A stretch of DNA of 41,432 nt from a virus, in UHGV virus genome UHGV-1461890; one strand, given 5' to 3'. Below, in pieces: positions 15,917 through 27,265 of this stretch. The notes under the pieces were generated by a model. That model did not search any database. It was not told where the DNA came from and worked only from the letters and a program-made list of their open reading frames with translations. How positions within the stretch are numbered: position 1 is the stretch's first letter; every line of letters begins with the position of its first letter. The position numbers were made by a program, and so were the translations under genes.

Positions 15917-18900
15917 ATGGGAGCTAAAGATGTATATGAGCAGTTAAAACGAGAAAAACAACAAGGCAATTCTAAAGCCAAAAAAGTCTACGCTCAAATG
16001 ATGCAATCTAAAATAATAGATGAATTCAATTCTCTTATAAAGCATAATTCGGACTTTTACAATAAAACCAAGTCTCGTTTTTATGACGAAGATGACAACT
16101 TTATAGACATCTATCGTTCTGATTCAGAAGATTGGAAAAACACAGCGGTTTCCATGTCAAGTTCTGCTAGAGAAAAGTCTACAAATATAAGAAGTTTGCT
16201 GGATGAATATGGTTCGTATTATGATGCGGATACTGTATCGAGTATGTTAAAAACCCTTGATGAGCATGAAAAATTCTCTACTGACATTGTAAAACAAGCG
16301 GTAGAACAACATGACTATTTTTCCGAGTATAAAGACGAGAATGACTACAACCAAAAGGTTGTTATACCTAAAAATCAAAATGAAGAGTGGGCCTCAGCCA
16401 ATACTGAGGCTCTGAAAACTGAGATTGGCAACCTTGAAACATCTTATAAGGCATATTCAGAACTTAAATCAAAGAGAAATTTAAGAAGTTCTCAGCTTAT
16501 ATCCAACTATATAAAGTCAGGTTATACGAGAGATGAGGCAGTAAAATTAGCCGCTAAAGACAAGGATATTATCGAATACGATAAAAAGTTATCTGTTTAT
16601 GGAGATATGAGTAATGCTGAAAAATCTCTCTCCGAAAAGAAGCAGTTTTACAACAATGCCACTCGTGTTCAGGAAGGCTTATCTTTAAGCGGAATAACTG
16701 ACCCTTCATCCAAGCACTATGACCCAAATTATCTCAAGTATTCAGCAAAAGGTGAGGCTATGGGTGATGAGAAAAACGGTGGTTTTTTTACACCTGATAC
16801 TCAGCGCAAAAACCAAGTGGCTTACCTCCGTAACAATCCCGATATGTTGGAACTGTATGAAGAAACTGCCAACGATGCTAATGGCGCATCATGGGGAACT
16901 TCCGAAAGAATATTACTAGACCAAATTGAATATAAAGCCGCTAAGTATATGACAGATGAAGAGTTTTTAATTTACAATGCCTACTTAGGCAAGGGAGACA
17001 AAGAATCGGCTGATAAATATTTGGAGAGTATAGAGGAGACTTTAACCTCTCGTCAGGGTGCGGCGATTTCTGAACAGCAAGATACTTGGCTTAAAAAACA
17101 ATTATTTAGCGTTTATGCAGGACTCGACCAATGGGAACAAGGCATTATCAGTTTAGGTAACACCGAAGGAAAATATGACTCCCCTACAGGCGTACAGTTT
17201 GCCTCAGGCACAATAAGAGAAGACTTGGGTGCAATCGGTCAAGGTGCTTATGACTTAGGCGTTACTACAGGAAACATGCTCCCATCCATTTTGGTTTCAT
17301 ATCTCACAAGTGGTGTTGGTGGTGCAGTAGGTTTAGGCGCAAAGGCAGCAGGAACACTAGGCAAAGTAGCCGGTGCCGCAACCTTGGGAAGCTCGGCAGC
17401 AGGTAATGGTTATCAGGAAATGCTCAACCTTGGCTATGATAAGAGTCAGGCACAGGCTTATGGCACTCTTGTAGGCCTTTCCGAAGCAGGTCTTGAGTAT
17501 GTATTGGGTGGTATTTCATCCCTTGGTGGTACGGTTTCAGGTGGCATAACTGACAAGGTCGTTACTAAGTTAGTTTCTAACATGGATAAGGCTATCGCTA
17601 AGGTAGCCATTGGCGCAGGTGGTAAACTTGTAGGTAGTATGGTATCTGAATTTGGAGAAGAATACCTGCAAGAAGTATTAGACCCGGTATTTAAAAACAT
17701 AACGCTTAACACCGATGAGGATATAAGGTTATTCTCCTCCGAGGCTCTTTATGCAGGTATACTAGGTGCATTGTCAGCAGGTTTGCTTGAGGGTGGTTCG
17801 AGTATATCAGGTGAGGTTGCAACCTATAAAGCAGGTAAGGATGTTAAGAACACAGGTCAGTTAAGTAACCTTAAAAAGTTCGGCACATCATTTTCTGCTG
17901 ATACCGTTGCATATAAGATTGCAAGTCAGGTTGATGAGAACACCGATGCTTATACCATAGGTCAGCTGCTACATGAAGTGGGCGCAGATAGTTTATCTGA
18001 AGCAAATATAGCTGACATAGTAAAATCTCTTGAGAGGAAAAACATATCTCCCGAACACGCTCAAACCATTGCTGAGTGGTTAAACGCTTCTGTTCAAGGT
18101 GAGGTATTTAATCCTCTTCAGCGATTAGCTTTAAAAAATCCTGATATAGCACAAACCTTTAAGGATGTTATTATAAACCAGAACTCTACAGTAAATCAAA
18201 GGATGCAGAGTTATACCGACATCCTTCAAAATATCGCCAATGAAAAGGAAATTATAAAGGCTAACAAAAGCAAAGCAAAGGCTGAGAAGAAAGCTAATAA
18301 AACCAAAACAACCGAAGAAACAAAAACTACACCTTTTGTTCCTTTGTCTAATGAAGCAATTACTGCTTCTAAGATAGAATCACTAGCAAAAGAACTTGAA
18401 AGCGAAGGTGTATCACCTGAATTGGCTCAGGTTATGGCTCAGAGGAAGGTTTCTGAATCTTCAGAGGGTAAATCTGTTGCCGATACTGAAAATGCTATAG
18501 AGAACAAATTTGAAACCAATTTAGATGGACAAACACTCAACACAAAAACAGGTGATAGTGTTAATGTGTCTGAAATAGCCTCTATAAAAGATGGCAAAAT
18601 GACCTTAAAACTTGACAATGGTGAAACTGTAGATGCAGACGATATTAGTTTTGGTACTGAAGATGAGGGTTTAATCTATTCGACAGTATTAGACATGGGT
18701 GTTAATGCCGCTGTAGCAAACTCTCTTGTAAAAAATTACAGTCCATCGGACAAGCTCTCAGCAAGACAATATGCTCTTGGCATTAAAGAGGCATATAAGT
18801 ATGGCTCTTATGGTATGCCTATAAACGAAATATCTAAAAACGGTTTTGCCGCTGATTTAAGTGAGGCTCAGAGGACTCATGCCTATAACCTTGGCAAATC

Positions 18901-27265: not shown

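Follow-up and report, generated by a model that had tools for sequence, protein, structure and literature searches.

Polyvalent proteins have been defined as a class in which a zincin metallopeptidase domain (MPTase) forms the hub and, of the protein-modifying domains, an ADP-ribosyltransferase (ART) of the H-Y-D type is the most frequent (Iyer, Burroughs, Anand, de Souza & Aravind 2017, PMC5512222). Nucleases of the PBECR and MuF-C types and 40 LPDs also belong to their repertoire, and the domains have been shuffled extensively (PMC5512222). Those of phages are encoded in a late virion gene context and are predicted to be packaged and injected (PMC5512222). The subject of the present analysis is an open reading frame (ORF) of 3782 amino acids (aa) in the IMG/VR contig IMGVR_UViG_3300045988_177050, the whole of which (41,432 bp) formed the window. 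The product of this ORF, referred to below as the giant, is best explained as a phage-type polyvalent protein, in which a conserved delivery backbone and several enzymes are united in one polypeptide; a probability of about 0.75 is attached to this reading.

Several giant or head-packaged phage proteins are available for comparison. Proteomics of purified virions of the Stx phage phi24B revealed that gp47 (vb_24B_48, 2807-2811 aa) is abundant in the particles while it is absent from the cryo-electron microscopy map, and the authors propose that it is an encapsidated ejection protein (bioRxiv 10.64898/2026.04.10.717836). The virion RNA polymerases (vRNAPs) of N4-like phages are about 3500 aa long and carry the polymerase centrally, with an MPTase fused to it in every case and an ART in some; in gp50 of N4, the MPTase-containing region is required for encapsidation (PMC5512222). 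The prophages phi1 and phi4 of Clostridium clostridioforme LM41, a gut Lachnospiraceae host, are about 41 kb in size, release podovirus-like particles, and contain an 8-kb ORF that takes up approximately 20 % of the genome and resembles a polyvalent protein with LPD3 (PMC11318856). T4 Alt, P1 DarB/DdrB, and SPP1 gp7/Mu F are also packaged in the head and injected with the DNA, after which they modify host targets or protect the DNA.

The giant ORF occupies 15917..27265 on the plus strand, as do all of its parts described below, and runs from ATG to stop without an internal stop codon. It makes up 11,349 of the 41,432 bases of the contig (27.4 %), which bears out the preliminary description of one uninterrupted 11.3-kb frame covering over a quarter of the genome. 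Its position after the capsid gene and four mid-sized ORFs and before the fibre and lysis genes was also as claimed there. An open frame of 11 kb at 38 % GC is not explicable by chance, so the ORF is taken to be real; the longest ORF in the other frames across the same stretch has 147 aa, and a strong Shine-Dalgarno site, AAGGAGG, is located 7 nucleotides (nt) 5' of the ATG. In IMG, the protein is labelled "hypothetical protein" and it forms a singleton cluster at 90 %. Neither megablast of the entire ORF nor tblastn of its first half against GenBank phages gave a match, and tblastn of the second half returned only the ART of F116-like phages and one gut-virome fragment. Scans of the giant against NCBIfam and PDB sequences yielded no family and no match, a profile of the whole backbone gave no match in the PDB, and Pfam searches with ten tiles of the protein added only noise and a weak MuF_C hint.

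As far as can be judged from sequence, the giant has every property by which polyvalent proteins are recognised, in line with the class to which it had been provisionally assigned. At least two disparate activities are combined in one polypeptide, namely the ART, the zincin, and an enzyme-like central domain. Domains specific to the class are present: PF18760 in the giant itself and PBECR3, PBECR5, MuF_C, LPD3, LPD23, and LPD38 in its homologues. The gene has a late, virion-type neighbourhood, and this context is kept in related loci.

The ART-PolyVal domain is located at aa 2188-2354 (22478..22978) and matches PF18760 with an E-value of 1.8e-21 and a score of 77.8 bits, the cutoff being 31.2. 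Candidate catalytic residues are H2198, Y2249 (with Y2223 in the sequence GSYFTD as an alternative), and D2317. They fit the configuration in which the H is in strand 1, the Y in strand 2, and the D in strand 5, and they are conserved in 91, 94, and 100 % of 34 sequences, respectively. The match obtained with this domain by tblastn was to Pseudomonas phage F116. The H-Y-D clade of ARTs is related to PARP and to the diphtheria and cholix toxins (Iyer et al. 2017, PMC5512222), and the earlier designation of the domain as diphtheria toxin-like was therefore a fair one.

The zincin module (aa ~880-1300; 18554..19816) contains the single HExxH sequence of the giant, HELTH, at aa 1108-1112 (nt 19238-19252). 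In an alignment with 124 relatives, H1108, E1109, and H1112 are conserved in 100 % of cases and E1166, the putative third zinc ligand located 58 residues C-terminal of HELTH, in 97 %. The HExxH motif and the Glu are also invariant in alignments of proteins that are only 24-30 % identical overall. Pfam family MPTase-PolyVal (PF18818), with a gathering score of 27.5 bits, did not match the giant itself; at the equivalent site, it gave matches below this threshold in the homologues P0011 (E=2.8e-5, 24.6 bits) and P0010 (E=1.1e-4, 22.7 bits). The zincin that had been proposed from the motif is thus upheld by its conservation. By its motif the module resembles MPTase-PolyVal, its membership of the Pfam family being unproven.

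Between the zincin and the central domain, a module has been inserted at aa ~1320-1510 (19874..20446) that is present in only 6 of 144 representatives of the family. It is possibly BECR-like and might be a divergent MuF-C/BECR-type nuclease: MuF_C (PF18819) matched aa 1351-1442 weakly (E=0.057, 14 bits; cutoff 27.6), and sub-threshold matches were seen at the equivalent site in P0016 (E=1.6e-4) and P0010 (E=0.025). The strong MuF_C matches of P0005 and P0009 were rejected as backing for this assignment, as they are located in a different, downstream module.

The enzymes are embedded in a backbone of conserved modules. While aa 1-240 are variable, a conserved N-module at aa ~240-740 (16634..18136) has homologous counterparts in P0011, P0017, P0020-23, and P0030 and is present in 75 of the 144 representatives. 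It has no match in Pfam or the PDB. Its core (aa ~430-660; nt ~17204-17896) is rich in Gly, Ala, and Ser, with 18 % Gly, many small-xxx-small spacings, and 16 % charged residues as against 28.5 % in the whole protein. This composition is the reason for a local GC peak of 0.444 at 17001-18000. The preliminary description had spoken of Gly-rich hydrophobic segments; the first half of this characterisation stands, while the hydrophobicity of the core is only moderate (best 19-residue Kyte-Doolittle mean 1.39).

The only segment of the giant to exceed a value of 1.4 is the hydrophobic helix at aa 3529-3552 (from nt 26501), the sole strongly hydrophobic one of the protein. It is part of the conserved helical C-module of ~1200 aa (aa ~2495-3725; 23399..27091) and is directly followed by the acidic motif RDDDDEE at aa 3555-3561 (26501-26599 for both elements together). 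The acidic motif, with the consensus RDDDEDE, is kept across the whole family, including relatives that are 25-30 % identical. Together with the helix it could be an element for interaction with the membrane or the portal. A coiled coil is present at aa 2777-2846, and the C-module as a whole matches phrog_22978, a profile of 3513 positions to which no function is assigned, with E=1e-184.

An AlphaFold2 model of aa 2850-3700 (predicted local distance difference test score (pLDDT) 64, predicted template modelling (TM) score 0.61) is almost all helical, with a few hairpins. In the PDB it matched generic helical bundles only. Comparison with predicted viral structures gave E-values from 4e-35 to 1e-10 and TM scores of 0.45-0.69 with C-terminal chunks of long proteins of uncultured phages, which are named in UniProt as MuF-C, nuclease, PolyVal ART, or LPD-containing proteins. 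Weaker fold matches were to "structural proteins" of Tenacibaculum phage Gundel_1 and of a Flavobacterium podophage. As its predicted fold recurs at the C-terminus of many such proteins, the C-module is one that phage polyvalent proteins have in common at this end, which makes it a good candidate for a packaging or ejection determinant.

The most constrained part of the giant by far is the central domain of ~650 aa (aa 1510-2160; 20444..22396). In an alignment of 13 sequences that are 26-30 % identical to the first one, 98 of the 126 invariant columns fall within this domain. In an alignment of 146 sequences, conservation reaches 90 % or more for about 24 polar residues and for the four cysteines C1605, C1652, C1655, and C2041, as would be expected of an enzyme that has a metal or Fe-S site. 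Asp, Lys, Arg, and Tyr are among the residues that are invariant in the domain. No match was obtained with the domain in Pfam, NCBIfam, or PDB sequences, either alone or as a profile, no fold match was found, and none of the Pfam families detected in 43 scanned homologues covers it. A profile built from 8 sequences retrieved 2306 cluster representatives at E<=1e-3 and 1583 at E<=1e-30; as these represent clusters at 50 % identity, the family counts at least 2,300 of them. Nearly all of the proteins concerned are 3000-4800 aa long and carry the domain at about residue 1100-1900. The domain is common, not universal, among proteins that have the N- and C-modules, and this distribution is that of a very successful cassette more than that of a part of the chassis. 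A bolder proposal, which is put forward tentatively, is that it represents a new enzyme family with an alpha/beta core, in which invariant polar residues are placed where the strands end and four Cys form a metal or Fe-S site. Thousands of lineages of temperate phages would deliver this enzyme into gut Clostridia, and it would catalyse a novel reaction in phage-host conflict, while the N- and C-modules would form a new packaging and ejection chassis that takes effector cassettes.

The modular character of the family became apparent from its homologues. Three homologue searches, for which the giant was split into three pieces of 1200-1400 aa, yielded 31 proteins, many of them fragments, and mapping of these onto the giant revealed that blocks come and go independently. 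In P0013, the zincin and inserted modules are joined directly to an ART, while the inserted module is lacking in P0011 and P0012. PBECR3 takes the place of the ART of the giant in P0007 and P0008, and in other relatives the slot between the central domain and the C-module contains PBECR5, LPD38, LPD23, LPD3, or MuF_C, or is empty (P0071, P0086). P0030, from a prophage in a 4.8-Mb chromosome, consists of the N-, zincin, and C-modules with nothing in between. The commonest architecture among the 144 representatives is N-zincin-central-C, and the region from the central domain to the C-module, which is the cassette site, varies from 0 to about 1100 aa. Pfam searches on the 31 homologues and then on 12 further relatives detected MuF_C, ART-PolyVal, PBECR3, PBECR5, MPTase-PolyVal, LPD3, LPD23, and LPD38; beyond these polyvalent families only Amidase_3 and SPOR were found. 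The large unassigned stretches, which according to the preliminary description might hold undescribed effector domains, are for the most part no collection of variable effectors; they are accounted for by a conserved backbone of N-module, zincin, and C-module and by the very widespread central domain.

Amidase_3 and SPOR occur together inside the polyvalent protein P0031, encoded on a 201-kb ENA contig. The same pair makes up the separate endolysin of the phage described here (31183-31893). Their presence within P0031 suggests that the virion carries a wall hydrolase in some lineages.

In IMG/VR, 40 related loci were found, many on contigs of 36-45 kb, and the complete giant ORFs among them range from 2747 to 5135 aa. 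One gene takes up 20-36 % of the genome in phages of this family. The ORF of 5135 aa is that of L054 (IMGVR_UViG_3300037400_001022, 43 kb) and represents 36 % of its contig. That of L039 (IMGVR_UViG_3300021255_000136, an 81-kb contig) comprises at least 6905 aa and runs off the upstream end of the stored locus. Species representatives in GTDB contributed 14 loci, mostly in metagenome-assembled genomes (MAGs) from animal gut or rumen and chiefly in Clostridia and Oscillospiraceae. A few loci are in MAGs labelled Bacteroidales or Akkermansia (L004, L006, L007, L013, and L014 carry the central domain); these labels are either binning artefacts or reflect a broader host range of the family. No member of the family has been cultured.

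Measured against the class defined by Iyer and coworkers, the giant agrees in being a large multidomain polypeptide encoded among late virion genes, with a zincin, an H-Y-D ART, and shuffled cassettes in its relatives. It differs in that its N-module, its 650-aa central domain, and its 1200-aa C-module lie outside all Pfam PolyVal and LPD models tested, and in that its zincin has diverged so far that it stays below the threshold of MPTase-PolyVal. The protein shares with phi24B gp47 that a giant polyvalent protein is encoded with the virion genes of a temperate phage, which in the case of phi24B is short-tailed. The cassettes of gp47, in contrast, are LPD5, LPD1, LPD38, and MuF-C, and the host of phi24B is Gram-negative. 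For lack of homology in the backbone, the giant was rejected as an orthologue of gp47, which can serve as an analogue only. N4 gp50, which is encapsidated and injected, is of similar size and also has a central catalytic module with terminal regions, but the giant lacks an RNA polymerase signature and belongs to a temperate phage. Compared by description only, phi1 and phi4 of LM41 look like the nearest biological counterparts, although their large ORFs are shorter (about 2700 aa). T4 Alt, P1 DarB/DdrB, and SPP1 gp7/Mu F differ from the giant in having one or few domains, no sequence relationship to it was found, and the ART of T4 Alt is of the R-S-E clade and not of the H-Y-D clade.

If the giant acts as these analogues suggest, a few copies would be enclosed in the capsid, and one of the conserved terminal modules, N or C, would determine packaging and exit through the portal. 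The protein would be ejected ahead of or with the DNA through a short tail, and the Gly-rich amphipathic N-module may help it to cross or insert into the envelope. The zincin might then cut the polyprotein into separate units or cut a host target, a host protein would be modified by the ART at an early stage of infection at the expense of NAD+, and the central domain would perform a further reaction. Packaging in the virion and delivery into the host are predicted here by analogy with phi24B gp47, N4 vRNAP, P1 Dar, and T4 Alt.

A number of points weigh against the assignment of the giant as a polyvalent protein. Its packaging, ejection, autoprocessing, and enzymatic activities are predictions, as is the podovirus morphology of the phage. 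The giant and its homologues all stay under the Pfam threshold of MPTase-PolyVal, hhalign of the inserted module with clear MuF_C domains gave a weak probability of 39 %, and both AlphaFold2 models are of moderate confidence (pLDDT 62 and 64). Deep hidden Markov models of the modules, when compared with phi24B gp47, gave nothing for the N-, central, and C-modules and only a faint signal for the zincin. Neither profiles nor folds revealed detectable homology of the backbone to solved ejection proteins. This last result counts equally against the possibility that the giant is mainly a structural ejection protein, a conduit like T7 gp14-16 or P22 gp7/gp20/gp16, that is essential for DNA delivery through the thick Gram-positive wall and has its enzymes as passengers or wall breachers. 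Such a role, which is the less probable one but is compatible with that of a polyvalent protein and does not exclude it, is exactly what has been proposed by the phi24B authors for gp47. It would agree with the conservation of the N- and C-modules even in P0030, in which any middle cassette is missing, with the long helical C-module and the Gly-rich amphipathic segments of the N-module, and with the presence of Amidase_3 and SPOR in the same protein in P0031. However, Pfam searches, including those with the tiles, detected no recognisable peptidoglycan hydrolase in the giant, and in the 13-sequence alignment the bulk of the invariant columns is in the central domain and not in the helical modules.

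Three further explanations were considered and rejected. The length of the giant, its largely helical C-terminus, and its Gly-rich hydrophobic segments are also features of what a tape measure protein of a long-tailed phage, with embedded lytic or effector domains, could look like; moreover, a gene downstream contains BppU_N and one upstream matches DUF859, a "siphovirus" family. Nonetheless, this is very unlikely. Family matching recognised no tail tube, sheath, chaperone pair, tape measure, Dit, or Tal among the genes of the phage; the two genes upstream of the giant encode 518 and 393 aa instead of a small chaperone pair, and the portal is of the P22 type. Tape measure proteins usually account for ~0.15 nm of tail per residue, and 3782 aa would imply a tail of ~570 nm. 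On contigs of ~40 kb, the gain and loss of cassettes lets the protein range in size from 2747 to more than 5100 aa. The giant matched no tape-measure family of PHROG or Pfam. The size of N4-like vRNAPs, the central position of the polymerase in them, and its fusion to an MPTase and sometimes an ART, together with the invariant Asp, Lys, Arg, and Tyr residues, might point to the central domain as a divergent virion nucleic-acid polymerase analogous to N4 vRNAP. As no part of the giant matched a polymerase family or structure, including the T7-like single-subunit RNA polymerases, there is little to commend this view. Finally, polymorphic toxins also contain ART and nuclease domains and the packaging of the giant is itself a prediction, which leaves a slim chance that it acts as a late intracellular or surface protein, for example in superinfection exclusion or, set free by lysis, as a toxin. 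The slot inside the virion block is conserved, though, in about 40 viral contigs and prophages, neither a signal peptide nor a secretion-system context was recognised, and an analogous polyvalent protein, phi24B gp47, has been detected in virions.

The giant belongs to a temperate gut phage, which has lysogeny and replication genes for RecE/RecT, SSB, a DNA methyltransferase, a serine integrase, and an XRE-type repressor. The virion block starts with TerS, TerL, a P22-type portal (PF16510), a Prp-like protease, a scaffold-like ORF, and the major capsid protein (8927-9949), which are followed by two small ORFs (85 and 138 aa), ORFs of 573, 238, 518, and 393 aa, and the giant. On the 3' side are a BppU_N/collagen fibre protein (628 aa), a 364-aa ORF, small ORFs, and the Amidase_3-SPOR endolysin. 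A terminator-like hairpin with a 15-pair stem is located directly 3' of the stop codon of the giant (27271..27304, plus strand), and a promoter-like site at 27285-27313 precedes the fibre gene. In view of these two elements, the fibre and lysis genes may form a transcription unit separate from that of the giant.

The 393-aa ORF directly 5' of the giant (14720..15901, plus strand) is a conserved neighbour: tblastn found it in 7 related loci, and in L001 and L005 it also directly adjoins the 5' side of the giant. It belongs to no Pfam or PHROG family and may be a dedicated partner of the giant, such as a chaperone or docking protein. The 573-aa ORF, the capsid protein, and the portal recur in several related loci, and synteny with these three and the 393-aa ORF is kept in related loci and in one prophage. 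The portal and the 573-aa protein have their nearest relatives on unannotated contigs of human faecal viromes. By its portal, the nearest cultured phage is Bacillus phage PK1, with only 24 % identity; the 1474-aa protein of PK1 was considered as a counterpart of the giant and rejected as unrelated.

The Prp-type cysteine protease (PF04327, E=1.2e-13) is encoded by a 114-aa ORF (7498-7842, plus strand) between the portal gene and the scaffold-like ORF (7829-8863, plus strand). The start of the capsid protein, MKNIFKINLQLFAE, and the sequence HLNLQLFGEG in the scaffold-like ORF are both like the N-terminal motif of ribosomal protein L27 that is cleaved by Prp. From this resemblance, the phage-encoded Prp probably matures the capsid. 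The L27-like motif was not found in the giant. One and the same tandem repeat (period 6/18, TGGCTC...) makes up both ends of the contig, 1-47 and 41375-41432, so a circular or circularly permuted genome was probably split within a repeat during assembly. An ORF with many Gly-Ser repeats likely runs across the junction.

Polyvalent proteins offer phages a predicted and barely tested route to deliver an enzyme toolkit together with their DNA. The giant adds a member to a class that was described in 2017 and introduces no new principle; what is new is the uncharacterised central domain and the backbone, an abundant chassis. As its chassis is fixed, the slot for cassettes is obvious, and one strongly constrained domain has no known relative, the family can serve as a good test bed, both to learn how giant proteins are packed and ejected and to search for enzymes of anti-defence or host takeover.

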